Below, one piece after another: positions 16,613 through 45,200 of a DNA stretch of 50,808 nt. The DNA is from Chrysochromulina tobinii. Its lineage: Eukaryota. Both the position numbers and the translations under genes were made by a program. The number at the start of each line of letters is the position of its first letter. The stretch's first letter is position 1. The notes beneath the pieces were generated by a model that saw only the letters and a program-made list of their open reading frames with translations, ran no database searches and had not been told where the DNA came from. The stretch covers positions 1 through 50,808 of the forward strand of contig JWZX01003134.1 in the NCBI GenBank assembly GCA_001275005.1. The letters run 5' to 3'.

Positions 16613-18236
16613 TCGAGCGCACCCGGGACTCCGAAGTCCGGGACGTCATGCTCGCCGTGCTCCTCGCGAAAGCGGAAGAGGTCATTCGCAAGCAAGATCC
16701 GAAGCTCGTTCTTGCCCAGGTCTTCGTCCTCAAACGCGAAGGCGCTCTTGACGCGCGCGGCCTCCTCCTCGGAGGCCATCGCCGTCACGCACGGCGCCTC
16801 GACCGCCGGCAGCGCGCCAAAGTAGGCAAAGCCGAGCGCCGCCGCGGCGCTCGGCCGTTTGGCGGGATCAATCTCGAGTAACGCCTTGAGGAGAGCGATC
16901 TCGTCCGGCGAGGCGCTGGGGCATGCGTCGCGCAGCTTGGCATCGACCTCCAGGCTGCGCTCCTCGTCGCCGAGGCTCGAGAGCGCCTCCTTGGCGCACA
17001 CATTCCGCACCTCCTCCACCGCCTCTGCGGAGTATCCTGCGAGCTCCGCGGAGGTCGGATCTCCCAGGATGCGCGCGATGACTGCGAGCTGATCGTATCG
17101 CTGGCGCTCGCGCTGCTCGTCGTCGAAAGAGAAGGGGATGCAGTAACGGCCAGGGAAGAGGGCGCCCGTACCTGACGTCGACACGCGAGCAAGTTTGCCT
17201 GATGAGAGAGGCACTCAGATGCCATCGGAGGCCATCAGAGGTCATCAGAGGTCATCAGAGGTCATCAGAGGTCATCAGAGGTCATCAGAGGTCATCAGAG
17301 GTCATCAGAGGTCATCAGAGGCACCCAGAGGCACTCAGATGCCATTAGTGGAGATCAGAGACCCAATCCGGGATGCCGGGGCGACCGGGGTAAGATTCGC
17401 GTACGCAGGTGCGACTGAGGAGTGAGCTCGAGCAGCTCCTTGAAGATGCACCCGACGGCCCACATGTCAATCGCTGCGCCGTACTTTTGACGTAGGATCA
17501 CCTCGGGCGCGCGGTACCATCGCGTGACGACGTAGAAGGTCATCTGAGCCCTGAGCGGCGGTGGCTTCGCCTTGAGCGGCGGTGGTTCGGCCGCCGCATC
17601 GCCACCGCCGCTCACCCCCTCGGCGGCATCCTCCATCGCGTTGTCCACCTGCGTGGAGGTCTCCTCGAGGCGCTTGGCGTACCGCGGGTTCGAGTCGACG
17701 CGCGCCAGCCCGAAGTCGCACAGACGCACGACGCCAAAGGGTGTGGCGGGCGTCACCTTGCCCGTCGAGACCAGGATGTTGGCCGGCTTCAGGTCGCGGT
17801 GGATGCCCGATATGGCGTGGACGTGCGTGAGGCCCGCGCACAGCTGCGCCATGAACGAGCGCACCTTGTTCACCTCGAGCGACTGCTTGGACTTGATGAT
17901 CCTGCGCATGTCGGACTCCATAAACTCGGTGATCATGAAGATGTCGTCGAAGGTCTCTATGTTGGCGGGCATGGCCAGCCCTCGCAGAGAGATCACATTT
18001 GGATGATGAAAGTCGCGCAGAAGCCGGATCTCGCGCAGCACCTTCTTGGCTTCCTGAGCGTCGTAGAAGACCTCCGAGATGCGCTTGATGGCGACCGTCT
18101 CGCCAGTCGCCGTCTCGACCGCACGCGCCACGACCGAGTACGCGCCACTGCCGATGAGCTTGACATTCGTGTAGTCCTTTTGCACCGCCCGATCCGCGCC
18201 TGACCAGAAGGCCTTCAGCTCTGCCTCCGAAGCCAT
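16603..18236 (-). CDS. Mitogen-activated protein kinase (exons 18236-17405, 17171-16603)
   Basis: IGSGAYSVV, VAIKRI, LREIRLL, HRDLKPANIL, CDFGLAR, TFYVVTRWYRAPE, LFPG, DQL; a 233-nt phase-1 intron joins the frames. Confidence 0.92.
17172..17404 (-). other. Intron containing a 10-bp (CTCTGATGAC)n array
   Basis: C|GTACGC...GTCAG|GTACGG; 8 exact GTCATCAGAG units on the plus strand (17241-17320) plus degenerate flanking units. Confidence 0.85.
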
Positions 18237-18511
18237 GAACAAATTAGGGGCCTCGTTCACACGCGCGTCATTACACGGAAACATCGTTATACACTGTTCG
18301 TACAAAGCCTATTCAGATATGGATGCTATGGAAATGGATGACACCTGTACATACTCTATGCAGGGAGGAGAGGGTTGCACCGCTCGTGGCGCTATGCGCC
18401 GCTCTCCCGCGACCCCACTGATCTCGCATCTTTATTCGGCGAGGTATCTTTTCGTCGCCTCCACACCAACGTCGGTCTCACGGAGCGGTACAATAGAGCC
18501 TTTAGAGCTCA

Positions 18512-19543
18512 ATGGGTCGCAGAGAAGCGCCAGCGTTGACGCCTACGGATGAGATGAGGAGTGCGACTCGTGCGGCTGTCGTGGATATCACGTGCCGGGT
18601 GCCATCGGGTGAGCCGCTTGTGGTCAAACCCTCACAGGCGCCGGTGGGCTCGCTGGACTCGTCGCTGGTGCCACTCATTGTCGAGCTTCGCAAGATGCTG
18701 TCCAACGATGTCAAGGAGAATGGCGATGCGGCAGCACACATAGATGACTTCACATTGGCGCGCTTTCTCATCGCACGTGAGTGCAAGCTGGCAGGTGCGG
18801 AGCGCATGTTTCGCGAGACCATGAAGTGGCGTGTGAGTCGTAGCATCAATCAAATCCGCCGCGACTTGCACCCGTTGGGCACGCACGCGGAGGGCAGCCC
18901 TGGCGCGGTTCGTGCTGCCGCGCGCCGCGAGCACTTTTTCGCAGGCTTTGGTGGCCATGCGCGAGACGGCTCGCCGTTTTTCATCGAGCGACTCGGCCGC
19001 TTCGACGTGGCAGGCGTCAATCGCGATAAAGCGGTGTTCAACTTTATGATGGACTGCTATGTGGGCTACCTCGAGACGGCCTTTAGCGCATGCCGTGTGG
19101 CCTCGGCTCATAGTGGCCGCATGACGCGCGCCCATTCGATCGTCGACGCATCGGGTGTCTCGCTCTCGACGATGGCCAACGTGCGCGTCATCAAGGAGGT
19201 GGCCAAGATCGGCACCTCATACTATCCTGAGATCATGCGCAAGGTCACCATCGTCAACTTGCCCTGGGCCTTTGCGGCGGTGTGGAAGCTCGTAGCGCCC
19301 CTCTTGCCCGAGCAGACGCGCCAAAAGGTGGCCATCTATGGCAGCGACTTTTTGCCGGCGCTCCTTGACGATATTGACGAAGCCGACCTGCCGGCCTTTC
19401 TCGGCGGCAAGAAGGATGATGCCGAGCTGAGCGTGCCGCGTGCCGCTCCGATCCCGGCTGAGCTTGGTCCGAAGCTTGCCGCGGCCGCGGCGACGCTGCC
19501 CTACGGCCCGCACGTCAGCTTGGTTGTTGACGTCGACGGCTAA
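18512..19543 (+). CDS. SEC14/CRAL-TRIO lipid-binding protein
   Basis: DDFTLARFLIARE...WR, GHARDGSP...ERLG, YYPE...IVNLPW, LPAFLGG. Confidence 0.9.
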   Translation: MGRREAPALTPTDEMRSATRAAVVDITCRVPSGEPLVVKPSQAPVGSLDSSLVPLIVELRKMLSNDVKENGDAAAHIDDFTLARFLIARECKLAGAERMFRETMKWRVSRSINQIRRDLHPLGTHAEGSPGAVRAAARREHFFAGFGGHARDGSPFFIERLGRFDVAGVNRDKAVFNFMMDCYVGYLETAFSACRVASAHSGRMTRAHSIVDASGVSLSTMANVRVIKEVAKIGTSYYPEIMRKVTIVNLPWAFAAVWKLVAPLLPEQTRQKVAIYGSDFLPALLDDIDEADLPAFLGGKKDDAELSVPRAAPIPAELGPKLAAAAATLPYGPHVSLVVDVDG

Positions 19544-20053
19544 TGTGAGTGCCGACTCGGAGACGGTCAGAGGTGCGGTGTTTGTACCCTCAGAGAGCTG
19601 ACAGCTGAGAGGTCCCCCACACGCCCAGATGGCCAGATGCCATGTCATTGTGCGACATGTCATGACATCTTGCCCCCCACACGCCCAGATGGCCATGCTG
19701 TCGCACAAGGACCCTGTCTGCTCCTTTGAGCGCTCAGCATGGCGCTCTTGCTCATCCGCATCAACGGATTCGCGCTGCCTTGGTCCTTGGTGAAAAGATT
19801 ACCCTATACCATACCGATCTAGTGAACTGACCGGTCATGCGAGTGATGCGTGTTCACATGTGCATGATCGAATGATTGTGCGGGTGTGCATGTGGATGTG
19901 TCGTGTCGTGTCGCATGAAGGTGGGCCCTTACGTTAAAAAGGCTATACCGTACCCGGTACATGTGGCGAAGGTATCCGCGACGCGTAATCGTTGTGCTGT
20001 TCAACACCTAGACGGAAGACGCGCGTCTCGTTTCGAACGCGAGTGTGACGGGC

Positions 20054-21400: not shown

Positions 21401-21691
21401 CGTTGCTAATGAAATGCCGCGCTGCACGCCTGGACGGACGCGGTCTGGTATGGAAGCAGCGCGCCGTTTTTCGCAGTTCGTGTCAAGTTTGTGTTCGATA
21501 TCTTGCGAAGTTACGCATTTACTATCGAAGGGCAGTTGACCGTAACGAGCTTATTTATCCCGGGTCTCTGAAAATAGCCGTATGCGCGCGATGCGCGGCG
21601 CGCGGACTTCGACACAGTTTCAAAACTTGCGAGTTCAGTCGTTCGTCGTGTGGGCAGTGCGGGGCGACCTCCACACTCCCGATTCCGCCGG

Positions 21692-22441: not shown

Positions 22442-22464
22442 GGTGCGCATCGATACGCACCTCC

Positions 22465-24185: not shown

Positions 24186-24813
24186 CTATTTCGCCTTGGC
24201 CTTGGCTAGCCTCGCTGCTCGTGCCTTGCGCGCCGCGGCGTCTGCTGCTGCTTGCTCAGCCTCCTCGGCCTTCTTGCGTCGCACTTCCGCAGCGGAGAAG
24301 AATGGCTGCAGGAGCTGGAGTACAAAAGCTTGGAGCGCGAGCACGATCTTCCAATTGTTGGCGAGGTAGACGACGAGCTACGCAGCAGGACAGTGCGGGA
24401 GGAGAGTTAAACGCGTGTCAGCGGCGGCCGTAGCGAACGGGCTCGCGTCGCTGACGGTGGCAAAGGAGCAGAGAGCGCGCGCAAGTGATCAGGGCGGCGG
24501 AGAGGCTCTTACGAGCGAGCCGAGAGTGAGCTGCAATCCACCACTCGGAGGCGTCAAAGGTGCCTGCCCCTGGCCGGCGAACGCGGCCGGGTTCATGCCT
24601 GGCTGCTGCCTCGCTTTGGTTGAGAATGGTGCGGGCGCCTCGCCGTTGGGAGTCCATTTGGCATCGAGCGCGGTAGTCAGCGCAAACGTCTGCGGGCAAG
24701 CGCGTACGCTTGGGCGGTGAGCACATCACGAGCGTGCAAATTGGCCACGGGCGAGGCGGATGGATGAGCGGCGACTAACACACCAGAGCTAGGATCCACG
24801 AGCGCCACCACAT
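24186..24813 (-). CDS. Small (~73 aa) membrane protein absent from the ORF track (exons 24813-24784, 24377-24186)
   Basis: Spliced product MWWRSWILAL|LVVYLANNWKIVLALQAFVLQLLQPFFSAAEVRRKKAEEAEQAAADAAARKARAARLAKAKAK*; GTGTGT donor and pyrimidine-rich TAG acceptor, phase 0. Confidence 0.5.
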
Positions 24814-25158: not shown

Positions 25159-25599
25159 ATGGGTACAGGCAGCGCGCCGGCTCCCTTTCCCGTGATCAAC
25201 CGCAAGCCGACTTTGGGCGCGACACTGCGCAACTTCACGTTTGGCGACTTGTGCAGCATGTTCGGATGCACCGTTGCGGGCGGCGTGTGGGGCTTTGCGG
25301 CGGGTGCGCACGCTGATTCTCTACGCTCAGCGCACCCTGCACGACCTGGCTTGTAGCTTTCGCGCTGAACTTGCCTGCATCGCTCTTTCCGCCGTCTAGT
25401 CGCTCACTCCCTGCCGCCCGATCGTTTGCGTGCCGCAGGCAAGCCCCTTCGGCGGCATGGCAGCATCAATCTCGCTATGACTGCGTGCTCTGTCGCCTTT
25501 GCCTACTCCTTCCAGGCCTCGTGGCACCGGCTCACCGGCCAGCGGCCGAACGAGTCCGAGTGCTACTACGCCGGCGTCCCCTTCGAGAAAGTGAACTAG
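25159..25599 (+). CDS. Mitochondrial complex I accessory subunit, NUXM/20.9-kDa (NDUFB1-related) type (exons 25159-25303, 25439-25599)
   Basis: FPVINRKPTLGATLRNFTFGD...GFAAG|KP...FAYSFQASWHRLTGQRPNESE; 135-nt GT-AG intron. Confidence 0.75.
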
Positions 25600-25935: not shown

Positions 25936-27837
25936 ATGAGCGCCGTCGACCCATACACCATCTTCGACAGCGTGGTGCCGCCAACAAGCGAGCCGGTCGC
26001 GGGCAACGACCCTTTCGACTGCTTTGGCGCGCCGGCGGAGCATCAACCGGCCAAGCGGCCATGCAGCTCGCCATCGCCAGTGCTCCCGTTGATTCGCCGC
26101 TTTGTGGCTGCACACGTTGGCGATGCGATCGCAGACTTGAGAGCGGCGAGCTCGTCTGCCGCTGCTACGCTCGCGTCCCATCTGAGTGATGCAGCGGACC
26201 ACTTGGCAGCCGTACCGGCCCAATTTTCCGGCTGCCGGTCCGCTGCGGAGAGCGTGGCTGACGCGGCGTGGTCCACGCTCACACAAGATGGCGCGTGGCC
26301 TCACGCTTCGTGGCGAGAGGCGTACGTGCTCGCGCAGCTCGCACTGGCCGCCGTGTGCTCGGCATGTGACAATGACACGGATGCCGCCCTGCGCTGCCTC
26401 GATAGGGCCTTCATCCTCGGTGGGCCCACGCAAGTGTTCCGCGACTGCGTCGAGATCCTTGACGAGCCAAAGCCGCAGAGAGCACGGCGATCAACGGGTC
26501 CACTGCCGACGGCCGACATCAACGAGGACGCGCCTGCTGCAGAGCCGTGGAGGAGGCGTCTGGAGGAGGTGCGACGTGCCCGTGACGGCGCGCCGTCTCG
26601 GGCGAGGCTTGCTGTTCGAGCCGTTGAGCGACAACCCTGCCCTCCGACGGCGCAAGCGTTCCGCGCGGCGCGGCGTGGCGGCGCTCCGCTTCTCTTCGAG
26701 GGCGTCGCCGACGGCTGGCCCGCACTTGAACAGTGGCAGGACTTTGGCTGGCTGCGCGACCAATACGGCGCGCGGCTCGTACCGGTAGAGCTGGGGAGCC
26801 TCGCGAACGCGGCGGGCGCCGTCGTGGGCGCGACCGCCGTGGGCGCGGTGGGCGCCGTCGTGGGCGCGACGGGCGCCGCCGCGGGCGCGACGGACGCCGC
26901 CGTGGCCACCGCCGCTGCGACGGATGGCGCCTCGATGGGCGGTGCGACGAGTGGCGGTGCGACACAGCCTGGCGCCCACCATGGCGCGTGGAGGGAGAAG
27001 TTGATGCCGCTGGCCGACTTTGTAGACACGTTCTTGATGGCTTCGGAGCCCGGCACGGAAGGCCACGCCGCGGCCGGTAAGGCGACAGCTGAGGCGGCCG
27101 GTGAAGCCGCCGAGGACGCGCAGGCGCGACACCCTCACGCCGTGTCGAGCGCCCGCGCCGTCGTGGGCTACCTCGCACAACACAATCTCTTTGAGCAGAT
27201 CCCGCGGCTGCGTCGCGACTTTGCGATCCCGGCGCTGCTCGCGGGCGGCGTGCAGCACATGCACGCGTGGCTTGGCCCTGAGGGCACAGTGACGCCTCTT
27301 CACTTCGACTCGTACGACAACGTGCTCGTGCAGGTCGTCGGCCACAAGCTCGTGTATCTCGAACGGGCCTCGAACCTAATCTGGACACCTCGCCTTGCAT
27401 GCAAGTGCTCACCACAGCGCCCTGCAAAAGCCACGTGCCTCGAACCAAATCTGGACACCTCGCCGTGCATGCGAGTGCTCATCACGGCGCCCGCTCCTCT
27501 TCCCCACAGGTCCCTCTTCGACTCGGGTCAGACGCCGCGCCTCTATCCCAAAGAGGGCGGCGGCACCGGCGTCGATGCCCAAGGCAACGTGAGTCCTCTG
27601 ATTACCTCTGATTACCTCTGATTACATCTGAGTACCTCTGATTACCTCATGCTCATCTTTGGTCAGGTGAGTGCGGTCGACGTCGAGGCGCCCGATATGG
27701 GTCGCTTCCCCGAGTTCGCGCACGCCGTCGGGTACGAATGCGTCCTCGGTCCGGGGGAGGGCCTCTACATCCCGGCGGGCTGCTGGCATCACGTGCGAAG
27801 CCTCAGCCCGTCGTGGTCCATCTCCTTTTGGTTCTGA
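25936..27837 (+). CDS. JmjC-domain hydroxylase, JMJD5/KDM8-like (exons 25936-27353, 27510-27588, 27667-27837)
   Basis: [74 protein letters not shown]. Confidence 0.92.
27354..27509 (+). other. Stop-free 156-nt intron with two tandem ~70-nt units carrying the TGCATGCAAGTGCTCAC module
   Basis: GT|GTATCTC...CCCCACAG|GTCCCTC; removal restores HKLVSLF; units start at 27367 and 27437. Confidence 0.8.
27589..27666 (+). other. 78-nt intron with a (CTCTGATTAC)n array
   Basis: AAC|GTGAGTcc...GTCAG|GTGAGTgc; ~5 ten-mer units; removal restores GNVSAVDVE. Confidence 0.9.
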
Positions 27838-28365: not shown

Positions 28366-28437
28366 TGAGCGCTCGTGCGGAATAGTTGCGGAATGCGAAT
28401 TCGTCAAGCCTGCAAGGTCAACTTTGGATTCAACTCC

Positions 28438-28501: not shown

Positions 28502-29833
28502 ATGATCTTCGCGACCGAGCTGCGCACGATATTTCTGCTCAGTCTCTTGACAGCTCGTGCCGCATCCATGGCGGCTGTCACGACTCCTAAGGCCGACCTT
28601 CGGTACGTCAGCCTAGCGGCGTCAGACGCTGCCAACCAGGTCGCCAATCCTGTCGCGTACCCGCGCGATCTCTACCCGGAGATAGAGCCGTTTGAGACCG
28701 GCTACCTGGATGTCGGCAATCACAAGCTGTACTACGACCTGAGCGGCAACCCGAACGGTGTGCCGTGCATATTTTTGCACGGCGGCCCTGGTGCAGGGTG
28801 CTCGCCTCGCTCCCGTCGCTTCTTTGACCCAGCATACTACAAGATTGTCATCCTCGACCAGCGAGGCTCTGGCAAGTCCATTCCGAATGCCGCGGACGAC
28901 CTTGATGGCTCGCTCGTCGAGAACACGACGCCCGCGCTGGTCCATGATATCGACCTTCTTCGAGCCAAGCTGGGCATTGAGCGCTGGGGCGTCGTGCTCG
29001 GCGGTTCGTGGGGTTCGACGCTCGCCCTGGCCTACGCTCAAGCGCACCCGGACCGGTGCTCCAACCTCCTGCTACGCGGAGTCTTCCTCTTCGGCCCCGA
29101 CGAAGTCGAATACTTGTTCTGCAACGGCGGCACCTTTGGGCAGAACCCGGGCGCTTGGTCCAAGTACGTGCAGTACCTCGAAGACACGAGCTCAAACTGG
29201 GCGGTCGAAAAGACCAACCTCCTCGGCGCATACTGGACGCGGCTCACGAGCAGTGACGCTGCGGTGCGCTCGGCGGCGGCGGCGGCCTTCGTCGGGTACG
29301 AGCTCTCGATAAGCAAGACATACACGGACCCCGCCGTGCTGGAGGTACGCTGAGGCCGTCGTGGGCACATGCTCGTTGTCACAGAGGAGCCGGCACCCCC
29401 ACGGTCCCCCGCGGCACCCCCGCGGCACCCCGCGCCTCCTTCTGGTGCGCCCTGCCTACGGCTGACTTTCTGTGCCTTGCCTGGCGAGCACCCTCAGACG
29501 TACCTTGGCACACCGACGATCCTCATCCCGTTCGCGGTCATGGAGGTTCACTACATGCTCCACGCGGGCTTTATGCGCCGTGGCCAACTCTTGGACAATG
29601 TCAAGGTGATGGCAGAGCACGGGCACAAGGTGGCCATCGCGCACGGGCGTGCCGATTATGTATGCCAGCCCCAGGCAGCCTATCGGCTCGCCCAGGCTCT
29701 CGGCGCGGTCGGAGCCCAATGCGAGCTCGAGATCGTCGCAGGCGCTGGGCACAGCGACTCGGAGCCTGGGTTGATCGACGCGATGGTTCGTGCGACGGAC
29801 AAGTTTCGTGATGTTGCGGCCGTGATCGCTTGA
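28502..29833 (+). CDS. pip: Proline iminopeptidase, peptidase S33 (exons 28502-29344, 29498-29833)
   Basis: LYPEIEP, FLHGGPG, DQRGSGKS, GGSWGSTLALAYAQAHP, HGRAD, AGHS; 153-nt phase-0 intron. Confidence 0.93.
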
Positions 29834-31866: not shown

Positions 31867-32689
31867 GAGGGTTTGTAGAGCGGTGCGCCTACTCAGGCCG
31901 CCAAGCCGAGAAGGCCCAGCTGCGCAGCACCGCAGCTCCTGGCCCGTGGCCGCGCGCCCGAAGGGACTGTGTCAACGGCACTACTACAACTAAGCAACAC
32001 GGATTCATGCATCGCAAACGGCTATAATGACCAATACATTCGCCTACAACTGAAGTGTCAGGGAAGCCGCACACCGTCGGCGTCGCGCAGAGAAACGCCG
32101 CGCGTCGCTAGGACCAGACGCGAGACGGGTCACGCACACGTAGACGTACCCCAAATAGACGAGACGAGGTCGGTACCGTATAAGTATTCGAATAAATCTT
32201 TGGCTATCTCCTAGCTTTAACTAGCCGTATCACCTATCTCCTACGGAGGTTCCGATTTTAACCGGTTCGGGCTTCGGGCCCGGTTCCAGGGGGTGTCGAC
32301 CTGTCGTGTCCGGGTGGGACCCGACCCGCACCTGTCGCGCGCCTTGCGATGTGACGGGTGAGGCGACATGACACCTTGGCACACTGCCACCGGTCCACAC
32401 GTGGGAACGGGCGGAATAATTGAAGTTGAACAATATCCGGATAGTTGCGAGATAGGCTCTTCTTACTCTTCCGATGTGTAGAGTTCAACGTTCGCGACGG
32501 TACAACACGAAACAACACGAAACAACACGAACGTTGCCGAATCCGTGTGTGTCAGGAGCTGCGGATCATCATGCGCCCGGGGTATTGACGCCCTATAGAA
32601 AGGGGGGTAATCAAGTTGCCCCGCGCGCATTGCGCGCGGCAAGGCGAGGGCGGCGAAAGCACGCGAGTCATGAGCAGGCTCACACTTCG

Positions 32690-33735: not shown

Positions 33736-36700
33736 TTATCGGCTGGCTGTGAAACGCCATGGGGGCCCGGCCTCGGGGATCGAGGCTGGATGACGCCATG
33801 GGGGCCCGGCCTCGGGGATGGAGGCTGGATGACGCCATGGGGGCCCGGCCTCGGGGATGGAGGCTGGCTGACGCCATGGGGGCCTGGCCTCGGGGATCGA
33901 GGCTGGTTGACGCCATGGGGGCCCGGCCTCGGGGATCGAGGCTGGCTGACGCCATGGGGGCCTGGCCTCGGGGATGGAGGCTGGATGACGCCATGGGGGC
34001 CCGGCCTCGGGGATCGAGGCTGGCTGACGCCATGGGGGCCCGGCCTCGGGGATCGAGGCTGGCTGACGCCATGGGGGCCCGGCCTCGGGGATCGAGGCTG
34101 TAATGTGGAAGTCTGCGGTTGATCTCCATGTAGGCTCCTCAAAATCAGTGTTCCCGTTCTCAACCACCGCCTTCTCAGCCGCCGCCTTCTCGGTCACCTG
34201 CACGGCCGCCAACTTCTCGGCCGCATCCTTCTTGGCCGCCGCAGCTTTCTCCGTCGCCGCCTTCGCCTTGGCCGCCTGCGCCTCGGCTGCCGCCTTTGCC
34301 TCAACCGCCGCCTTCTCGGCCACAACTTGCCATGCCTTCGCCGCCTTCACGGCTGCAGCCGCCTTGCTCGCTAGGCGTGTGCGCTGCTGCTCTTGTTCAC
34401 GCGTCTGGGCGCGCTTGGCAGGTGGCGCAGCGACGGGCGCCGAAGCGTCAGGCGCCGTCACGGGCGCTCTTTGTTCAGCGACGGGCGCTGCGGCGACGGG
34501 CGCTGCGGTGACTGGCGCTGCGGCGACGGGCGCTGCGGCTACGGGCGCTGGGGCGACGGGCGATGGGGCGACGGGCGCTGGGGCGACCTCCGCGGCCTCC
34601 TTGTCTGCCTTCTCCTTGGCTTCTGCGGCCTCCTTCTCGGCCTTCTTCGCCGCCTCGGCTGCCTCCTTCTCCGCCTTCTTCGCGGCCTTAGTGTCGATCG
34701 CGGCAGCCGTGGGTGGCTGCAGCTGCTGATCTCGATTCGGCTGGTGTGGCTCGTTCACAGCGCGCTCGACCAGTGCATCGTTAGCGGGCGCTGCCGCGAC
34801 GGGCGCTGCCGCAACGGGCGCTGCCGCGACGGGCGCTGCCGCGACGGGCGGCATCCTCGTAGACGTTGCACCGTCATCCGCAGCCCTTTGATCGAGTTCG
34901 CCATTCGCGAGACGCTTGAAGATGGTGTTGGGCTCGGAGCAACTCGCGCTTCGGGGCATGCGAAGGTTGGCCGCCTGCCCCGAGGCAGGATGGTTGTGGA
35001 GGTCGGTCGAGTTCCATGCAAACTCCGGCTGCGTGTGAGATGGTTCGTCGTCTTCGCACCGGCACGTCATTGCCGACACGTCCCTCGCCGCCGCCCTGAC
35101 GAGTCGCTTCTGGTCAGACTGACGGAGGACCGTCGCGCTCCGTGCAAGCTCCGTCTTGTTCGTCACGATCAGCTCATCGTCCCCCGGGTTCGTCAGAATG
35201 GGCCCATCGCCATCGCACGGACAGGTCGGTGATGTCGGTGAGAGGCCGGAGCTCGCCAGCATGATTGTCGTACCCGCACCCCCCATCGGCTCGATTCTCA
35301 GGCCAACGGGCCTCAGAGCGTCGCCGAGGCACTTGTCGGCAGCGCTGGCACCTGCCCAGCAGCTCTCGATGGCCAGCTGTCCGTCTGTGTAAGTATTAGA
35401 GACGGTCGCGAACGAGGTGGGGGGGCGCGGGAGGCTGCAGTCAAACTCGGTGCCGGCAGGACTGTACTGACGGAACGAGGCGAATTGCCTGTCCGCCTCG
35501 TTTCGCAAGAGTGACATCATGGCGACCTTGGGGTTCTTTGCGATGGACCGAAGTGCATCCTCCCATGCCACCATCGTCGCCTCATTACGTGCGAGCATGC
35601 ACTTTGTCGGCGGCCTTTCCTTCACGAGCTGCCCGGCCGTATTGGCGTTGACAAACTGCGGGAAGAAGTTGAGCGTGATCGTGCAGTTCGCGGGGGGGCA
35701 GACGTCCTTGGGCACTCCTTCACACACAAGATCGCGCACGCGGACGAAGTAGTCGGCGAAGTCGTACTTGAGACCCAAGTACAGCGAGGATGCATCGCCA
35801 GTGAGGTTCGTAGGTCGCATGCCCGGCTTCTTCGAGCTACTGAGCGCCAAGATCTTCTGGTTGAGTACTGGGTTGCTCCTCCTCCGAAGCGTACCGGTGC
35901 CGGAGTCGAAGATCGCATCCGCAAAGGACGACATGTTGCACCCGGTGACGTGTTCGGTCGTCGACCACACCATGCTCGTGTACGAGAAGGGCTCGCCGAG
36001 GTCGAACACGCACGGGTGGGTATTGAGCGCATGCCCAAACTCCGTCGCGCCACTTTCGTGGTCAGAGATGATGACGAGCACCTGTGCGAAAGACGAGCCA
36101 GCCTTCTCGGCCGCCGCCTCCTCGGCCGCCTCCTTCGCCGCCTCCTCCTTGGCCGCCGCCTTCTCCTTGGCCGCCTTCTCCGCCGCCTCCTTCTCCGCCG
36201 CCTCCTTCTCCGCCGCCTCCTTCTCCGCCGCCGCCTTCTCCGCCGCCGCCTTCTCCGCCGCCGCCTTCTCCGCCGCCGCCTTCTCCGCCGCCTCCTTCTC
36301 CGCCGCCGCCTCTGCCTCAGCATAGGCCTTCGCAGCCGCAGCCTCCGCCGCGGCCGCCGCCTCCTCGGCAGCCGCCTCCGCCTCAGACGCGGCCTCCTCG
36401 GCCGCCGCCTCCTTGGCCGCAGCCTTCTCAGCCTCGATTGCCAGCTCACACGCCATGTGGCACTCGGTTAGCATGAAGTCTGGGTTGGCCTCACACTCCC
36501 CCGCCGCAGCCCATTGGGGGCAGTCAGCGGGCTCGGGCGCGAGAATCGCGGCGAGCGTCGCCTTCTCCGCCGCCGCATTCTCTTCGTATGCCTGCTGGGC
36601 CGCGGCGTTTTGCGCGGCCACTCTCGTGGCTACGTCCGAACGCTCGCACGTGACCTTACACTGTGTCCTCGCGCACCACTGGGAGAGGCACTCCAGCGCG

Positions 36701-38130
36701 CATTCGCCCTGCAATGCTCGATGGGCGCAGTTCGGCGGCTCGTCAGCGGGGACGAGGAACTCGGTGAGAGCGGCCCTCTGGGCGATCCCGATTTCGAAGG
36801 CCGCCTTCTCGGCCGCCGCCCTCTCGGCGTACTCCTTCTGGGCCGCGGCGTTCATCTCGGCATCTGCCTTCTCGAGCGCCGTCTTTCTCGCGGCCGCCGC
36901 TTGCTCCGCCTCTGCCTTTCTAGCTGCCGCCGCTCGCTCCGCCTCTGCTTTCCTTGCCATTGCGGCTTGTTCGGCCGCTTCCTTTCTAACGGCCGCCGCC
37001 TTCTGATAGGCCGCCTCCTTGGCAGCCGCCTTCTCGGCCGCCGCCTTCTCCGCCAGCGCCTTCTGGAATTCCGCCTCGACGGCCGCCGCCATGCCGGCCG
37101 CTGCCTCCTCCGCTGCTGCCTTCTCCATCGCTGCCTTCTCCGCCGCCGCAGCCGCATTCTCCTCCGCCGCCGCCTCGATCGCCGCCTGCTCCGCCAACGC
37201 CCTCTGGAACGCCGCCTCGACGGCCGCTGCCTGCTCGGCCGCTGCCTTCTCCGCTGCTGCCTTCTCTGCCGTCGCCTTTTCCGCTGCCGCCTTCTCGGCC
37301 GCCGCCTTCTCGGCCAGCGCCTTCTGGAACTCCGCCTCGACGGCCGCTGCCTGCTCGGCCGCCGCCTTCTCGGCCGCACTCGCCGTCGCCGCCTTCTCGG
37401 CAACCGCCATCTGGAACGTCACCGCCGCCTTTTCTCTTGCCGCCTTCTCGGCCGCCGCCTTCTCGGCCACCGCCTTCTCTGCCGCTGCCTTCTCGGCCAC
37501 CGTCTTCTCGGCCGTCGCCTTCTCGGCCACCGCCTGCTCGGCCGCCGCCTTCTCGGCGACCGCCTTCTCTTTATTCGCTGCCTCCCTCTCGGCTGCATGA
37601 TCCTTGATCCATGACTTCCAGCAAGCAGCCTGGCACTCCTTGCGCATCAGGGCCGACTTGGCGGCCGAATTTGTGCTCGAGGCGATGCACTCGCCCGCAT
37701 CTGCCCGCGCGTCGCACCCTTCAGGGTCTGCTAACTCCCAACTGGCAGACTCCGGGGGATCCACGGGCCTTTTGATCTCGGTCCTTGACTCGGTCATGGC
37801 CGGCGCGGTCGGCTGGGTCGTGGTCGGCGTAGCAACCGTGGCCGGTGTATTGAGGTACCACGGTGTTCTGCCATCTTTTCTGCGGACTGCCGTCCCCGAG
37901 GCTGGTATGGTCAGCGAGGCTGGCTGGGCCTTCTCTGCCGCCGCCTTCTCCGCCGCTCGCTCCGCCGCCGCTCGCTCCGCTTCCGCCTTCTCCGCCGCCG
38001 CTCGCTCCGCCGTGACATGAGGCGTGGCGATCTCTGTGAGCGCTTGAAATGCAGCATTTGGGGGAAGCGCATGCGCGACGAGGGCGAGCGCTAGACATAT
38101 GGCAAGACGGCAGAGGTAGCCGTGGCCCAT
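33736..38130 (-). CDS. Giant secreted protein: EKAAA helical repeats, three ShK-like domains, sulfotransferase-like domain, C-terminal 13-aa repeats
   Basis: Signal peptide; [25 protein letters not shown] and two related motifs; [29 protein letters not shown]; (EKAAA)n; (APVAA)n. Confidence 0.8.
33754..34100. repeat. 39-bp minisatellite, 9 copies
   Basis: ACGCCATGGGGGCCYGGCCTCGGGGATSGAGGCTGGHTG. Confidence 0.95.
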
Positions 38131-38372
38131 GTCTCCTTGCCAATTACCAAATTTGGTCGTCTGCTTTGGCTGACGATGCATGCAGTTTGAAAGTGCAAAC
38201 CGGCCTCACGGTGCGCATTCGCCCCGGGTGTTAGAGGCCGCAACGCTCCCCGCCTAAGTATGATGCGCCGCCGTTTCAAAGCAGGTTTGAACTTCGATGA
38301 TCGGAGACGCCGCGCACGTTCGAGTGGCAAAAGTGCCGAGACACAACACGGCCGTCCAGGCAATCGCCCTCA

Positions 38373-39872
38373 ATGCGATTCTTCTCACTGTGCATCATCG
38401 CAGCGGCGCGTACCGCTCTTGTGAGCGCGGTTGCGCCGCGTAAGCGCATGTTGATGATGGTGGGCGGAGATCTCGACGATTACAACCGCGAGATCTTCGA
38501 GTTGATCATCTCGAACGCCGGTGGATCCAACAGCACTCTCTGCGTCATTGCAACCAATGGCGAAGATCCATGCTGCGACCCCGACAGCAGTTGGGTGTTC
38601 TACCAGCAGTTGTTCACCGGTTACGGTGCGACCGACGTCAAGTACATCAACATCGATGTGAACAACAGCTTTCCAAGGTCCCACACGGGGAACGCGTATG
38701 ACCCTGCGATCATCGAGCAGATCAAATCGTGCGACGGGTTTTGGTTTGGCGGCGGCGACCAGACGCGCATCATGAAAGCCTGGTACGACAACAACGTGAC
38801 GGGCAAGCTGAACACGCGAACGCCGACACCGGCGATGACGGCACTGCTTGAGCGCTTCGAGGAGCATGGCGGCGTGCTGGCGGGCTCGTCCGCCGGCACT
38901 GACTGCCACAATGCGAAGGTCATGGTCACCGACGGTGACTCCTACTCCGGACTCGTGAAGGATACTGTCGCATACAACTACAGTGAAGGTGCGGTCGACC
39001 TGGACGACGGTACAGTGACCTTCGACCCGAATGGAGCGCTTGGCACGTTCTCGTATGGGCTCCTTGACACCCACTTTGGCGAGCGCGGTCGTCAGGGCCG
39101 GATGATTCGGCTTCTGATGGACACGCTGCACCTGCCGAATGGGTATCCGATTGGGTTTGGCGTCGACCAGAACACAGTGATCATCGTGGACAAGGATGAC
39201 CCTTCGCACGCCATTGTCCGAGGCCAGGCCGGCGTCACCATCTGTAACGCGTCGACCCTGATTGCACCTGATTGCACCTGATTGCACCTGATTGCACTTG
39301 ATTGCACCTGATTGCACCTGATTGCATGAGCAGGTAACGTGGAGGACGCGTCGACGACGCAGTGGGCGGGCGCTTGGTCCGTGACCAACGTGCGCTGCAA
39401 CTACGCCACGCCGGGCGATACCGTGCACATGACCACAGGCACCATCTCCTTCGGTGCGGACAAGACGGCTCTCAAAGGACGGGAGACTGCCGAGCAGCCC
39501 TACACTTCACGCGACGTCTTCAACTCGCCGAAGAACCCCTCGACCACGGGCAGCACGCACGAGTTCGTGCTTCAGGCCACGTCGCTGTTCAACTCGACAG
39601 CCACGACATCGACCGGACTGACCTTTGAGACGGAGCCCAAGACGTTCGCCGTGCGCATGACGAAGGATGACAGGTCCGTGGCCTATCAGGGAATGCACAA
39701 CTTCAATGGCACTCTACAAAGCTACACCTCCTACATGGACTTGGTGGTAGACATCTTCGCCCTCGACACCAAAGAGGCACTCAGCATGGCGTTCATGGGT
39801 GGAGTAACGGCTGAGCGCGCGCAGATCAAAGGGACGATAGCCGCCGCCCGTGCGCCACGCGAAGATAAGTAA
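38373..39872 (+). CDS. Secreted cyanophycinase-like serine peptidase, S51 (exons 38373-39243, 39334-39872)
   Basis: Signal peptide; LMMVGG, GFWFGGGDQTR, AGSSAG nucleophile, LDTHFGERGRQGR, GFGVDQNT. Confidence 0.88.
39244..39333 (+). other. 90-nt intron with a (CTGATTGCAC)n array
   Basis: T|GTAACGCGTCGAC...GCAG|GTAACGTGGAGGACGCGTCGAC; 7 ten-mer units. Confidence 0.9.
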
Positions 39873-40245: not shown

Positions 40246-40294
40246 ACCGGTAACTTGAAACATGCATGGGTGTGAAAGGCGAAACAACAACCAT

Positions 40295-41819: not shown

Positions 41820-42278
41820 CCACCTCATTCACGTTCACAGCTGACCCGTGACCGCGCGGCGCGTGCCGACGATCGCGTATCTCGGTACACACATCACCGA
41901 ACGGTGCGTGGTGTTCTTGGGGGGCTCCGCGCGATTGGCCCTCCCAAGCGGCCCAACGCGAGATCTCGCACCGCGAGATCTCGTAAGTGGACCAAGCGGC
42001 CGCGCTAAGCATGGATGTCGACCACTACGTTGGCTCCGACGAGCGCGCGCTCTCACAGGGAAGCTTTTGCATGCTGTGATGAGCGGAGCTGCGAGCAGGG
42101 GACCCCGCCCTGCTGCGGCGACGTGCCAATCAAATATGTTCGTCACGCGTCACGGTACCGGGGTCGGCCCAGTGTGTGTTTCTTCGCACTGTTAACTTAA
42201 CAAGAAAGCCCAATACAATTCGAGACGGGTTGAGAAAACCTTCTTTGGACCCGTCCAGCGAGGTCTGTCGTGTCGTTT

Positions 42279-45200
42279 TCAGGCCCTGCCAGTGCCGCGC
42301 GCGGTCACCACGCCTCGCGGCACCGGAGCACCACCCAACGGTCGGCCCTGGTGCTCTGTGGAAGGGCGGGCGGTTAGGGCTCCCCGGCGGTTCTCGCCGG
42401 CGGCCGGTGAGGGGGCACCACGGGTGAGGGGTCGACCCGAGCCTGCCTTTGGCGTCTTCGGCGTCTTCGGCTTTGCGGCTGGTGGCGGCGGCATCGCCGG
42501 CAGTGTGAGCGGCGGCGCCGCCGCGGCAGGTGCAGGTGCTTGGGTTTTGATCTCTGCATCGATGTCGACGCTCGTCCGTCGCTGCTTCTCAGTGCGCTGC
42601 TGCTCCTTACGCTGCTGCTCCCTCAACTTCTCTCGAGGCGAGATGTACCGTTCGGGCGGCGGCAGGCCCAACTCCTTGGCACGATCCTTGAGGACCTTGA
42701 ACTCGCGAACCTTGACACTCTCACGTGCCGACACGTGGTTGACGAACTCCTCCTCATAGGCCGCATTCTCGGCCGCGAACGCCTCACCGGCCGCTGCCTT
42801 GAGCCCCGCTGGCAGCGGGCCAGCCGCCTTTGCGAGAGAGCGCAGCCAGGCCATCTGCAGCGTACCGACCTCGACCTCACGTGTGGCCAAAAGGAGTTCT
42901 ATCGCCTCGTGTGGCCGTCCAACGACCGCGTGGGCCGCGGCGATCGCATCTCTCTCGAGGAGCTCTGGAGTGAGCGCTTCCTCCGGGCGGTACATGGTCG
43001 ACGGACTGGGCGAGCGATCGCGCACCGGGCTGTCCCGGGCGCCTCTCGGGGGCGTGCTGTCCCGGGCGCCTCTCGGGAGTGGCTCGTCGTGCGCCCACCG
43101 GCCCAAGCGAACGCTGTCACGGGGGTCGTGCGGATTCTTGGGTAGCACTCCCTGCTTTCGCATGGGCGCGTCCAGAGACAGGCGCAGGTTGTGCACCTGG
43201 ACGGACGAGTGGATCGCATCCAATAAGAATGGTCATCAGTGGTCATCAGTGGTCATCAGTGGTCATAAGCAGTCATCAGAAGTCATCAGCAGTCATCAGC
43301 ACTCATCAGCACTCATCAGCAGCCATCAGTGCACCTGGCTCTTCTCGACCGCCTCCATCAACTGCGGTGCCAAAATAAAGGCCAACTCGGTCGCAGGAGC
43401 TCCCCCATTTTCTCTTTCGAGCGTCTGTGCGATGGCATCGAGCGCTTCTTCGGTGGCGTGGCACAGATACGCGGAGTACGCCGCTCGGGCTTCGGAATAA
43501 GGCACGGTGCCACGGACATCCTCCTCGTCGTCCTTCTTCCCCTTCCCCTTCTTGCCGCCTTTGGGTCTTCCCCGTAGGCCTTTGGGGCTGCCCTTTGGGT
43601 CTTCGAAGACCTTTGGATCTTCGTCTCGGCTGGGTCTTCGTAGGCCCTTGGGGCTGCTGTCGGGACTGGCGGCCGCGTGAGTCCATGAGTGATTCGAATC
43701 GTCTTCGGAGCCCATCAGAGCTCGAAGTCCTTTGGGCAGCTCCTTGAAGGGCACTTCCTCGTCGACCCAGAAGGCATCCCCGAGGGTGAAACGCGTCGCC
43801 TCGGCCGCCTCCGCCTCCGCCTCCGCCGCCGCCGCCTTCGACGCCATTCGCGCCGGTCTGAGTGTCACCGAGACTTCAGTCGACATTGGAACTAGGGACG
43901 GCGGGGAGGGCCTTCCTAGTATGGGAACCGCCCCGGTGCCTATATTAGGCAAGAACGTTTCGGACGAATCGCCGACCACGCTGACCTTTTCGCCCTCCTT
44001 GTCCTCGATGGGCGTCGCTGTGGGAACCTCAAACGGCAGCAGCACTTGTCGCGTCTTGGCAAGGGCCCTCGCCCGCGTGCTGAGCTTGTCGCGCGTCGTC
44101 TCGGCGACGCGCTCGAGGACCGCCGGAAGCATGCAAGCAGACGCGCTGTGTGTGAGCGAGGCGATCGCGTTCTTTGCGAGCAACTCGACGCGCTCGCACC
44201 GGCGACGCACGCGCTGCAGCCCTACCTGATGAGGGAGGCAATCAAGAGGTCATCATCAGTGGTCATCAATGGTCATCAATGGTCATCAATGACTGCAGCC
44301 CTACCTCCGCCTCCGACAGCTGCTTGCTCGTCTCCTCGACCTTGAGATCGTATGCGACGCGCGCCTCGTAGTTGCTGTCGCGCGCGAGCGCGGCCTCGTC
44401 GTAGACGGCGTTGAGCCGGCGGGTAGACTCGTCCTTGCGAGCGTGCTTCTGGGCCTCGACCTCCTCCATCGTCGCGCGCGCCTCCATCTGCTCCTCCCAG
44501 TACTCGAGGATCCCCTTGACGTGATCGCACATGGTCAGCTCCTCGAGCTCGCCCCACGCCGCTCGCAGGTTTTTATGGCGGCGCCCCTCCCTCGTCGCGA
44601 CCGCAGTCATCTGTGCGACCACGCCGCTCGTCGCGGCGCGCTTCTCGGCTGCTTTGCGCTGCTCCCAAAACCTGTCAGCCCCACGCTTGGCGGACTCCTG
44701 CTGCGCCTCCGCCAACTCCCTCTGCTGACGCTTCTGCTCGCCTGCCGCCTGGTCCCTCAAGAAACGTAACCGCTCCCTCGAGACCCCGCCGCCGAGCGAG
44801 CTGTTGCTCGCGCCACTCTCTCCGGCGGCAGCCTGGAGATCGTGCATCACCTTCTTACGGCGCGCCTCCCTCTTCTCCTCCGCCGCCACCTGCTCCTCCT
44901 GCAGGCGCTCCAGCGAGCGCTCCGAATGCTCCTGCATCGCCACAGCGACGTCCATGCCTTCCTCCAACACATCCAGCCGGACGGTGAGCTCGATGAGCGC
45001 AGATCGCAGATAGGCGAGCTTCTGGTTGAGGTGCGGGCGGCGTGTCTCGAGCCGCTCGGCCATCATCTCGTACACGAGCGCGTCCGTCTCCGCCTGTGCG
45101 GCCTTATGCGCAGCCTCTTTCCACTCAGACTCCAGCTCGGCAGCTACCCTTGCCAGCTTGCCGCCGTCAGCGTCCTCACGCGCGCGTGCGTCCGTCTTCG

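Follow-up and report, generated by a model that had tools for sequence, protein, structure and literature searches.

Ten-nucleotide arrays in five introns of Chrysochromulina tobinii as a probable introner-like intron family

In a 50,808-nt stretch of the Chrysochromulina tobinii genome (contig JWZX01003134.1; the window hereafter means this whole stretch), five introns carry tandem arrays of a short unit that resembles a splicing branch site. The locus raises the question of how such arrays came to lie, all in one orientation, inside introns of different genes: whether they arrived together with the introns, expanded later in old introns, or persist because of a function of their own. We propose that the five introns belong to a large family whose near-identical members were probably created by the insertion of a short mobile sequence.

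One unit family in five introns

Tandem Repeats Finder located period-10 arrays in the window at 17215-17321/17316-17339, 27595-27648, 39257-39326, 43232-43329 and 44253-44291, and also listed an unrelated 3-copy ACAACACGAA at 32502-32531. In a lag scan of the window, runs appeared at lag 10 and at lags divisible by 3 only, with zero runs at lags 4, 5, 7, 8, 11, 13, 14, 16, 17 and 19; the seven lag-10 runs compare with none in 100 first-order Markov simulations. The pattern YTGAT-N5-YTGAT matched 26 times in the window versus 0.12 expected by chance, and all 26 matches were on the transcribed strand within the five array introns. RNA contigs from four runs span each array, and all five are spliced out with GT..AG ends. 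The introns, their arrays and the flanking duplications are as follows.

17172..17404, minus strand: intron A1, 233 nt, protein-kinase gene (Pkinase exons), spliced in contigs of 4/4 RNA runs
17215-17339, minus strand: A1 array (CTCTGATGAC)n, edge units degenerate
17400-17404 (copy 1, intron start) and 17167..17171 (copy 2), minus strand: A1 duplication GTACG, 5 letters common to both joint sides
27589..27666, plus strand: intron A2, 78 nt, cupin/JmjC-like gene (Pfam Cupin_8), joint in RNA run X13
27595-27648, plus strand: A2 array (CCTCTGATTA)n
27589-27594 and 27667-27672, plus strand: A2 duplication GTGAGT, 6 letters common to both joint sides
39244..39333, plus strand: intron A3, 90 nt, phase 1, cyanophycinase-like (Peptidase_S51) gene, joint in 4/4 RNA runs
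39257-39326, plus strand: A3 array (CCTGATTGCA)n
Intron start and 39334-39339, plus strand: A3 duplication GTAACG, 6 letters common to both joint sides
43197..43334, minus strand: intron A4, 138 nt, joint in X12 and X13
43232-43329, minus strand: A4 array, blocks GCTGATGAGT x2, GCTGATGACT x2 and ACTGATGACC x3
43329-43338 and 43191-43200, minus strand: A4 duplication CCAGGTGCAC, 10 letters common to both joint sides
44226..44304, minus strand: intron A5, 79 nt, ending in the canonical CCTCCCTCATCAG, joint in X14
44253-44291, minus strand: A5 array (ATTGATGACC)n
44293-44306 and 44214-44227, minus strand: A5 duplication AGGTAGGGCTGCAG, 14 letters common to both joint sides

These results bear out most of the initial annotation, which had described a 10-nt period with a common YTGAT core in five arrays, confinement of the arrays to introns within the window, and the same orientation in genes of either strand: two arrays lie in plus-strand and three in minus-strand genes, 5/5 in sense. 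Its outer limits, 17172 and 44304, coincide exactly with intron ends according to the RNA joints. It had also taken the unit sequences to differ, and this does not hold, as the units are variants of one 10-mer once rotated to a CTGAT start. The rotated units are CTGATGACCT, CTGATTACCT, CTGATTGCAC, CTGATGA(C/G)(C/T)N and TTGATGACCA, and they form one family, CTGAT[G/T][A/G]CC[T/A/G], with the consensus CTGATGACCT. The RNA depth at the arrays was 1000-3400 compared with roughly 5-115 in the adjacent bins, indicating that many other RNA contigs carry the same units.

Metagenome contigs were scanned with the generic pattern CTGAT-N5 x4, which yielded at least 135 loci, more than 100 of them with arrays of the window's unit family. 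Among the matches listed, 108 array blocks had flanks of at least 55% GC, and in these the positions left free by the pattern were strongly biased: G/T at position 6 in 98/108, G/A at position 7 in 100/108, C at position 8 in 97/108 and C at position 9 in 87/108. At least 91 family-type blocks (66 flank clusters) with differing flanks were found among the matches listed, of which L090 alone is the window itself. In viral contigs the same pattern gave 84 loci with unrelated units. The sense orientation extends to this wider sample, with 51 loci in sense, 8 in antisense and 7 of unclear orientation out of 66 independent metagenome loci in the matches listed, as called by a coding-strand classifier that was 92-94% correct on the window genes. 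Of the six strongest antisense calls, four turned out to be sense upon inspection, while the arrays of L088 and L118 seem to be antisense or intergenic.

Duplicated exon sequence and array ends

Direct repeats start at or just before the GT donor in all five array introns. From A1 to A5, the letters common to both sides of the joint number 5, 6, 6, 10 and 14; at five array-less introns outside family B (see below) they number 0, 1, 2, 2 and 2. A link between the arrays and exon duplication had been suggested in the initial annotation, and it was recovered at 5/5 window introns and, as a flanking repeat of at least 9 nt, at 54/108 metagenome blocks among the matches listed, compared with 23/595 mismatched pairs (4%); the other 54 of these blocks have no flanking repeat of that length. 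The duplications are 5-14 nt long in the window and 9 to ~43 nt at the metagenome loci among the matches listed. The A1 duplication is the weakest in the window; its second GTACG makes up the opening 5 nt of the exon downstream. In A3, CGTCGAC follows the intronic GTAACG, and a second CGTCGAC lies 9 nt further into the exon. The duplications at A1 (5 nt), A2 and A3 (6 nt) are partly expected from the AG/GT consensus of exon junctions.

Splicing runs from a GT at or within copy 1 to an AG just before or within copy 2, restoring the reading frame. For 40 unique duplications among the matches listed, a GT..AG solution was found in 18 and a CT..AC solution in 5, three of which can also be solved in sense; no exact solution of either kind was present in 20, many of which sit inside complex multi-array introns. 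Clear examples of a duplication with an array are L020, L070, L030, L038, L086, L122 and L069. Removal of the predicted metagenome introns left the frame continuous in 7/7 cases in which both flanks scored as coding, with 11 more cases set aside for a low-scoring flank.

Among the metagenome matches listed, the arrays often end in a 13-nt terminal module, CCTCCCTCATCAG, followed by GT. This canonical end (TGAT..pyrimidines..CATCAG) was found in at least 42 distinct instances, with GT as the next bases in 25 and GC in 5, and in at least 16 instances at least 9 nt of the downstream sequence is repeated upstream. In the canonical end the A of the last unit lies 16 nt from the AG. However, CATCAG terminates only ~20/86 family arrays among the matches listed, so that the putative element would have no single fixed structure. 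In addition, selection for spliceability alone can give exact CAG/GT boundaries, and such boundaries are therefore no proof of a defined element terminus.

The window also contains a second dispersed intron family, family B, which has the core TGCATGCAAGTGCTCAC...GCGCC...CCCCACAG and no 10-nt array.

9940..10027, minus strand: intron B1, 88 nt, OTU protease gene, joint in X13, 9 letters common to both joint sides
27354..27509, plus strand: intron B2, 156 nt, same gene as A2, joints in X13 and X14

B1 is a member of this family and has CAGGTATCG on both sides (exact over 9 nt, 25/29 nt with mismatches). By alignment, B2 consists of two tandem ~72-nt copies of the core and has no long flanking repeat, with 2 letters common to both joint sides. 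A motif scan gave 3 family-B matches versus 0.03 expected.

The arrays themselves change in length. In two strain pairs, the arrays differ in length by 80 nt and by 20 nt between nearly identical flanks, in steps of 10 nt, and the introns are present in each partner of both pairs. At some loci (L020, L070, L091, L054 and L050), whole blocks of exon piece plus array are re-duplicated in tandem. Copy-number change in place could mean that the arrays are secondary, that is, microsatellite-like expansions of the branch-site region in old introns, flanked by repeats that are unrelated to them and due to chance or to the splice-site consensus. The 10-nt steps between strains, the degenerate edges and homogeneous centre of the A1 array, the blocks of local variants in A4 and the short repeats of A1-A3 (5-6 nt) agree with such a history. 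We nevertheless consider it highly improbable, as independent expansion would not have furnished over 40 unrelated genes with one and the same 10-mer and 13-nt module. It also leaves aside the 9-43 nt host duplications at half of the arrays among the matches listed against 4% in the control, and the mere 0-2 nt common across the joints of the array-less window introns. Furthermore, protein homologues with 46-65% identity, one of them from a 34-kb contig, run uninterrupted across the A3 site. At the DNA level, no orthologous locus lacking one of the five introns was seen, so that insertion is deduced from its footprints rather than observed.

Origin of the array introns

The array introns are likely an introner-like family of mobile introns. 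Near-identical introns occur in unrelated genes (the five in the window and the metagenome blocks), they are spliced, as seen directly from the RNA joints in the window and indirectly from frame continuity at the metagenome loci, and the duplication contributes a splice site, though its length varies unlike that of published classes. We propose that a staggered break at the target would give rise to a target-site duplication of host exon sequence. The element would bring the 3' half of the intron, namely many branch-site-like CTGAT units, a pyrimidine tract and then CAG, whereas the duplicated target would provide the GT donor. Short homology may prime a polymerase or a reverse transcriptase, which would fill in or copy at the break. 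Replication slippage or unequal exchange could afterwards homogenise and resize the arrays, and sometimes re-duplicate an entire block of exon piece and array. In coding sequence, an insertion would survive only in sense orientation and if it can be spliced out precisely, which would account for the strand bias.

The initial annotation suggested reiterative, telomerase-like copying of a short template, and the internal homogeneity of the arrays and the microhomology at their junctions fit primed copying. Slippage in situ, directly seen as the length differences between strains, explains the homogeneity more simply. No inverted repeats of at least 8 nt were found in the five array introns including their flanks, and this, together with the variable and long duplications (5-43 nt), argues against a cut-and-paste DDE transposase. 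An introner derived from a DNA transposon is not supported, as terminal inverted repeats of that length are absent and the duplication length is not constant (window: 5, 6, 6, 10 and 14 nt; metagenome matches listed: 9 to ~43 nt). A domain scan of 27 long window ORFs gave no reverse transcriptase, and neither the window ORFs nor the array loci revealed an autonomous element with a reverse transcriptase or transposase.

Such a lack of machinery is also what break repair with no dedicated element would leave behind. Staggered breaks in exons would be end-joined (by NHEJ or a polymerase-theta type of joining), the fill-in of overhangs would give the duplication, abundant 10-nt array DNA would be captured or copied as filler, and spliceable products would persist. 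New introns with short direct repeats in Daphnia, Drosophila and Aspergillus have been put down to staggered double-strand-break repair, and these resemble the array introns in having direct repeats over the splice sites, variable repeat lengths and no transposon hallmarks. The 5-43 nt range of the duplications points the same way, as does microhomology of at least 3 nt at 5/16 exon/array junctions (none at 7/16), and the iterated blocks of exon piece and array are reminiscent of repeated template switching. However, the fillers of break-repair introns are unique and unrelated, whereas the filler here is always one 10-mer family at more than 100 loci and stops exactly at ...CATCAG in at least 42 instances. 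This exact end is present even where the duplicated sequence starts without GT (L024, L106 and L112), and selection for splicing cannot explain the boundary there. Captured sequence of donor exons would also be expected now and then; with the arrays masked, family B was the only non-simple sequence common to the high-GC array loci among the matches listed. Break repair without a dedicated element is therefore unlikely in our view.

A particular form of the mobile-intron proposal, which we regard as quite doubtful, is that the spliced-out intron RNA itself is the mobile unit and is reverse-transcribed at staggered DNA nicks. If so, the 3' end of the element would be the 3' splice site, giving the exact ...CATCAG end even with no GT following. 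Priming on a few bases of homology, with stalling or slipping on the 10-nt units, would make the 5' end variable and the array homogeneous. New introns would in this way come from existing introns, with no transposase involved, each copy arriving with branch site, pyrimidine tract and acceptor ready. Target-primed reverse transcription is known from non-LTR retroelements and from SINEs with 3' tandem-repeat tails. It leaves variable, sometimes long duplications, one defined and one variable ("truncated") end and microhomology, and the array introns may share this pattern: their duplications vary in length, at least 42 instances have the ...CATCAG end, and the junctions have microhomology of at least 3 nt in 5/16 cases and none in 7/16. 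Tandem repeats of a short unit could come from reiterative copying. In contrast to those elements, the array introns showed neither a reverse transcriptase nor poly(A) nor a longer parent element, and their defined end coincides with the 3' splice site.

The arrays might instead persist mainly through a function in RNA or DNA: as redundant branch sites by which splicing is secured or regulated, as C-box/D-box-like kink-turn motifs (UGAUGA/CUGA) that bind a Snu13/L7Ae-type protein, or as a nucleosome-positioning signal with the 10-bp helical repeat. CTGAT fits the branch consensus yUnAy, and the A of the nearest unit lies 63, 25, 12, 39 and 16 nt from the acceptor in A1 to A5, that is 12-39 nt in A2-A5 and 16 nt in the canonical end. 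The 10-nt period nearly equals the helical repeat of DNA, and the sense strand of the A1 and A4 arrays gave sub-threshold Rfam matches to archaeal C/D-box sRNAs. The latter reached at best 21.3 bits against a gathering threshold of 41 (sR3) and 20.5 against 45 (sR1), so that a box C/D snoRNA or sRNA is not supported; no Rfam match in the whole window attained the gathering level. The abundant variants CTGATTGCCT/CA have no UGAUGA, and the C-box reading thus fails for ~40% of the arrays. Folding energies were no better than those of shuffled sequences (z from -0.56 to +0.31). In A1, an internal CTCTCATCAG ends at 17199, the acceptor in use is 27 nt beyond, and the nearest unit is 63 nt away from that acceptor. 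Moreover, branch sites, kink-turns and nucleosomes all leave the flanking duplications unexplained. Persistence mainly by function is thus very unlikely; a functional role is compatible with a mobile origin and is not an alternative to it.

Comparison with known introns

Rogers in 1989 and Hellsten et al. in 2011 reportedly described introns that arise when an exon segment containing AGGT is duplicated in tandem. Many array loci (L023, L056, L076, L093 and L120) likewise have AGGT within the duplicated piece, the predicted donor being the GT in the first copy and the predicted acceptor the AG in the second. There, however, the intron is the duplicated exon itself, whereas a foreign 10-mer array lies between the copies here. 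Emiliania huxleyi reportedly has intronic tandem repeats of 10-11 nt (Read et al., 2013, Nature 499:209), which would resemble the present arrays in period, intronic place and strand specificity; full-text searches of the open literature gave no paper that describes them.

Introners have been reported in Micromonas, Aureococcus, Symbiodinium, Polarella and fungi, with haptophyte entries as well (Gozashti et al., 2022, PMC9860276; Roy et al., 2020, bioRxiv 10.1101/2020.10.14.339549). Supplementary Table 5 enters 653 elements for E. huxleyi CCMP1516 as well as several Chrysochromulina and Prymnesium MAGs, and Table 6 marks the duplications and inverted repeats of the E. huxleyi families with "?" (PMC9860276). 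Introners resemble the array introns in being many near-identical short introns in unrelated genes with a flanking target duplication. One splice site comes with the element and the duplicated target provides the other; in Symbiodinium, as proposed here, it is the 3' site that the element brings and the 5' site that the duplication contributes. Published classes have fixed short duplications of 3-8 nt and often terminal inverted repeats, whereas the array introns have duplications of 5 to ~43 nt and no such repeats. The Chrysochromulina MAG introners have a 4-nt duplication and carry the 5' site, whereas the array introns would carry the 3' site. Two further differences are the intron body of 10-nt tandem units in variable copy number and the frequent tandem re-duplication of blocks of exon piece and array. 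Bodies of tandem repeats are not mentioned in the introner passages compared: "tandem repeat" occurs 0 times in PMC9860276 and PMC12130899, and "tandem" 0 times in bioRxiv 10.1101/2020.10.14.339549. The window probably does not come from E. huxleyi: the sequencing runs in which it occurs carry the labels of freshwater and mixed-culture metagenomes, and about 60-65% of E. huxleyi donors are reported to be GC (PMC4028052), whereas the RNA-supported introns of the window use GT only, 11/11 being GT-AG.

Period-10 arrays and splicing in the window

Tandem Repeats Finder located period-10 arrays at 17215-17339, 27595-27648, 39257-39326, 43232-43329 and 44253-44291, inside the five introns A1-A5.

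Introns with a 10-nt array, all GT..AG, with RNA joints and with the first intron bases that recur directly after the acceptor (five of five introns). The RNA evidence is contigs from runs X12, X13, X14 and X16 mapped onto 5600-45400, and as such the missing X16 joint for A2, A4 and A5 is not readable as absence.
A1, 17172-17404, minus strand: protein kinase gene; joint in all four runs; repeat GTACG (5 nt)
A2, 27589-27666, plus strand: cupin/JmjC-like gene; joint in X13; repeat GTGAGT (6 nt)
A3, 39244-39333, plus strand: cyanophycinase-like gene; joint in all four runs; repeat GTAACG (6 nt), with a further CGTCGAC offset by 9 nt
A4, 43197-43334, minus strand: joint in X12 and X13; repeat CCAGGTGCAC (10 nt)
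A5, 44226-44304, minus strand: joint in X14; repeat AGGTAGGGCTGCAG (14 nt)

In a lag scan of the window, repeat runs appeared only at lag 10 and, as coding repeats, at lags divisible by three; lags 4, 5, 7, 8, 11, 13, 14, 16, 17 and 19 gave zero runs. Seven lag-10 runs were observed versus 0 in 100 Markov-1 simulations of the window. The period-10 arrays are a real, non-random feature, and their placement in five introns by the initial annotation is borne out by the RNA joints. The motif YTGAT-N5-YTGAT has 26 matches in the window versus 0.12 expected; all 26 lie within the five arrays on the transcribed strand, in agreement with the earlier statement that none occurs outside introns here. Pfam domains (Pkinase, Cupin_8 and Peptidase_S51) were found on matching strands in the ORFs beside the arrays. 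All five arrays are in sense orientation, two in plus-strand and three in minus-strand genes, as had been claimed for genes of both strands.

Introns without a 10-nt array in the region 5600-45400, from RNA contigs. Family B is a second dispersed intron family that lacks the array.
9940-10027, minus strand: family-B intron B1
24378-24512, minus strand: intron
24690-24783, minus strand: intron
25303-25437, plus strand: intron
27354-27509, plus strand: family-B intron B2
29343-29495, plus strand: intron

All 11 RNA-supported introns are GT-AG, with lengths of 78-233 nt. Since the window genes are mostly one long ORF with 0-2 introns each, 7 of the 11 introns found in 40 kb are of the array type or of family B.

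One 10-nt unit and its strand bias in metagenomes

When rotated to start at CTGAT, the window units read CTGATGACCT, CTGATTACCT, CTGATTGCAC, CTGATGA(C/G)(C/T)N and TTGATGACCA. They are one to three bases apart and form one family, so the initial description of their sequences as different does not hold. Metagenomes were searched on both strands with a pattern kept generic, CTGAT-N5-CTGAT-N5-CTGAT-N5-CTGAT, which yielded at least 135 loci. The window itself is among them only as L090, and the remaining listed loci resemble it just in the array. Among the matches listed, 108 blocks had enough flank in DNA of at least 55% GC, 27 low-GC arrays being left out. The unit positions left free by the pattern converge in these listed blocks on the window unit: position 6 is G or T in 98 of 108, position 7 is G or A in 100, position 8 is C in 97 and position 9 is C in 87. 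The most frequent units among the matches listed are CTGATGACCT (21), CTGATTGCCT (13) and CTGATTGCCA (9). The identical pattern matched 84 loci on viral contigs with unrelated, mostly AT-rich units, so the 10-mer family is not a product of the pattern. A giant-virus or other viral vector was rejected, as 0 of these 84 loci carried the CTGATGACCT family in a GC-rich context. In the RNA, depth reaches 1000-3400 at the arrays versus roughly 5-115 in adjacent bins, and loose contig ends from other loci stop there with CTCATCAG followed by GTACG or GTGCG.

The strand-bias check proposed for the whole genome was run on the listed metagenome loci, with a codon-usage strand classifier trained on 23 window ORFs (leave-one-gene-out accuracy 92% for 150-nt and 94% for 250-nt chunks). 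It confirmed the bias: at a margin above 3, 66 independent family clusters among the matches listed split into 51 sense, 8 antisense and 7 unclear, the 8 being an upper bound because repeat-rich intron flanks mislead the classifier. Inspection of the six strongest antisense calls revealed that L025, L095, L105 and L107 are actually sense, by protein sequence or GT..AG duplication; their repeat-rich flanks had caused the miscall. The other two, L088(-) and L118(-), carry family-type arrays beside opposite-strand coding or non-coding sequence and look like genuine antisense or intergenic copies. If so, they would expose element ends free of splicing selection.

Flanking duplications, 3' module and array dynamics

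Across the joint of five introns without array or family-B core, 0, 1, 2, 2 and 2 letters are common. The flanks of the listed blocks were compared after masking of period 10, taking the longest exact match between 70 nt before and 70 nt after the array. A match of at least 9 nt was found in 54 of 108 listed blocks versus 23 of 595 mismatched left/right pairs. Together with the repeats at all five window introns, this upholds the suggested link between arrays and exon duplication. In a typical listed locus, (CTGATGACCT)n and then CCTCCCTCATCAG stand between two copies of X, with exon on either side; X is a piece of the host gene's coding sequence, 9-43 nt long among the matches listed. In L020, X is GTGTGCCGGGAGCTCTTTGACTT and lies inside an EF-hand-like reading frame. 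The 54 cases contain 40 unique X among the matches listed. In 18 of them, GT..AG intron ends can be placed so that they keep register with the duplication. The antisense equivalent is possible in 5 of these 40, including 3 that also have a sense solution, and 20 have neither. The position of AGGT within X is variable (start, middle or end). Removal of the predicted intron kept the frame in 7 of 7 listed cases with both flanks coding; 11 cases in which one flank did not look coding, usually being a further array copy, were left out of this count.

In A3, the intron start at 39244-39262 (GTAACG plus CGTCGAC) equals the exon start at 39334-39362 (GTAACG-TGGAGGACG-CGTCGAC) minus 9 nt. The two copies suggest that the duplication was originally about 22 nt and that the intron copy later lost 9 nt.

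A terminal module of TGAT, pyrimidines and CATCAG occurs at 42 distinct places in the listed matches plus the window. The next two bases are GT in 25 of these 42, GC in 5 and something else in 12. At least 16 of the 42 ends have an upstream copy of at least 9 nt of the downstream sequence. Among the matches listed, CATCAG follows the array directly, within 50 nt, in only 20 of 86 family arrays, so many copies do not have the canonical end. In L024, L106 and L112 the array stops exactly at CATCAG although the duplicated sequence starts without GT, which hints at an intrinsic terminus, the loci themselves being complex.

The whole block of X, array and end often occurs 2-4 times in tandem (L020, L070, L091, L054, L050, L024). 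Higher-order tandem repeats with a period of 60-120 nt were seen in L024(+) at 0-250 and L050(-) at 480-800, each repeat made of an exon-derived piece, a short array and the CATCAG end, with up to four copies per intron. Microhomology of at least 3 nt is present at 5 of 16 exon/array junctions and absent at 7 of 16. At L126(-), about 290-350, exon sequence ending in GATGACGAC adjoins the array, which opens with TGATGACGAC units, a variant that is rare elsewhere; the junction homology is 9 nt, as if the exon had templated or primed the first units.

Between metagenomes, one locus varies by 80 nt inside the array (L005 and L008) and another by 20 nt (L004 and L085), with nearly identical flanks. 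The A1 array has a homogeneous centre and degenerate edges, and the A4 array consists of local blocks of unit variants. In-situ slippage or unequal exchange acting on the arrays is directly supported by these length differences, by the degenerate edges and by the variant blocks.

Introner-like reading and neighbouring features

With the sequence family, sense intronic location, splicing, flanking host duplications, conserved 3' module and copy-number instability established, the best-supported reading of the array introns is an introner-like family, that is, insertions that create introns. The flanking duplication would be a target-site duplication. The element would bring branch-site-like units, a pyrimidine tract and CAG, and the target would give GT; the last unit of the canonical end has its A 16 nt from the AG. 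The sense bias may arise because unspliceable insertions are lost. Chemically, the duplication could come from fill-in or copying at staggered breaks, in view of the variable duplication length (5-43 nt), the junction microhomology and the absence of inverted repeats, none of at least 8 nt being found in the five array introns. The copying may be the work of a reverse transcriptase or a repair polymerase, or may be reiterative and telomerase-like as the initial annotation proposed. The array body, the long footprint and the re-duplication with exon pieces suggest that introns were gained here through break repair or reverse transcription. At protein level, homologues of the A3 gene with 46-65% identity run unbroken across the intron site, and one of these lies on a 34-kb contig; this would fit a lineage-specific gain of A3.

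A structural or RNA-gene identity of the arrays was also considered. Folding energies of the array introns equal those of shuffles (z about 0). A terminal hairpin between the last CTGATGA and the TCATCAG in the end module was rejected, as it is unused in the predicted folds and the introns hold no inverted repeat of at least 8 nt. The unit reads CUGAUGA in RNA, and Rfam models gave no hammerhead match; no Rfam family reached its gathering score in the window. Sub-threshold matches to archaeal C/D-box sRNAs were seen at 17273-17322(-) and 43254-43349(-) (sR3 21.3 bits, sR1 20.5 bits; gathering 41-54), an effect of the UGAUGA and CUGA within the unit; we judged this to be resemblance rather than membership. 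Abundant TTGCC unit variants have no C box. No reverse transcriptase or transposase domain was found among the 27 long window ORFs scanned. Pairwise comparison of all listed loci with arrays masked revealed neither a larger element from which the arrays could derive nor pieces of a donor exon; the array-bearing high-GC loci have only simple repeats and family B in common.

The origin of new spliceosomal introns is a long-standing question. Introners are the documented large-scale source, so far mostly tied to DNA transposons and short fixed target duplications. Haptophytes are among the organisms with documented introners, and the supplement lists 653 elements in five families for E. huxleyi, with duplications and inverted repeats marked "?" (Gozashti et al. 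2022, PMC9860276, Supplementary Tables 5 and 6). Elements in a Chrysochromulina MAG are described there with a 4-bp duplication and carry the 5' site (Gozashti et al. 2022, PMC9860276). Symbiodinium elements are described as carrying the 3' site, the 5' site coming from a 4-nt duplication (Roy et al. 2020, bioRxiv 10.1101/2020.10.14.339549). Gozashti et al. 2025 added introners derived from retroelements and others whose mechanism is unknown. The searched passages of these three papers make no mention of tandem-repeat bodies or long variable duplications. Unlike known introners, the array family has a body of tandem branch-site-like 10-mers plus a compact 3' splice module, leaves a long duplication of variable length, and is often re-duplicated together with an exon piece. 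It is best filed as a new variety of introner with an unusual body and footprint.

Read and colleagues are said to have reported, in 2013, 10-11-nt intronic repeats in E. huxleyi. In the open literature we found no relevant description of such repeats in E. huxleyi or haptophytes, and a Daphnia tandem-repeat paper, which mentions Emiliania once, has nothing on its intronic repeats. The window is probably not from E. huxleyi: its donors are all GT, whereas about 60-65% GC donors are reported for E. huxleyi (PMC4028052), and the runs that contain it are labelled as freshwater and mixed-culture samples. If the E. huxleyi repeats are the same thing, a puzzling genome feature would be explained as a trace of intron gain. 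The unit plus the 13-nt end gives a sequence handle with which empty sites, source molecules and branch points could be sought. The long direct repeats predict easy precise intron loss, so that gain and loss could be tracked in natural lake populations.

The family-B core is TGCATGCAAGTGCTCAC..GCGCC, then a pyrimidine run, then CCCCACAG followed by GT. Its motif has 3 matches in the window versus 0.03 expected and recurs among the matches listed (L001, L038, L040, L049, L055, L059, L072, L073, L074, L085, L124). B1 has CAGGTATCG on both sides, a repeat that extends to 25 of 29 nt when mismatches are allowed, and B2 consists of two tandem copies of about 72 nt.

Elsewhere in the window, 33736-38205(-) is a 1489-codon open frame packed with 15- and 30-nt coding repeats of the GCCGCCTTCTCCGCC type, with weak HC2 and ShK Pfam matches. 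The RNA joints 36136>37536 and 36255>37025 within it are non-GT/AG and look like repeat collapse rather than splicing. The 3' end of this repeat-rich frame holds a 39-nt tandem repeat at 33754-34100(+), with 8.9 copies, 95% identity and a score of 631.
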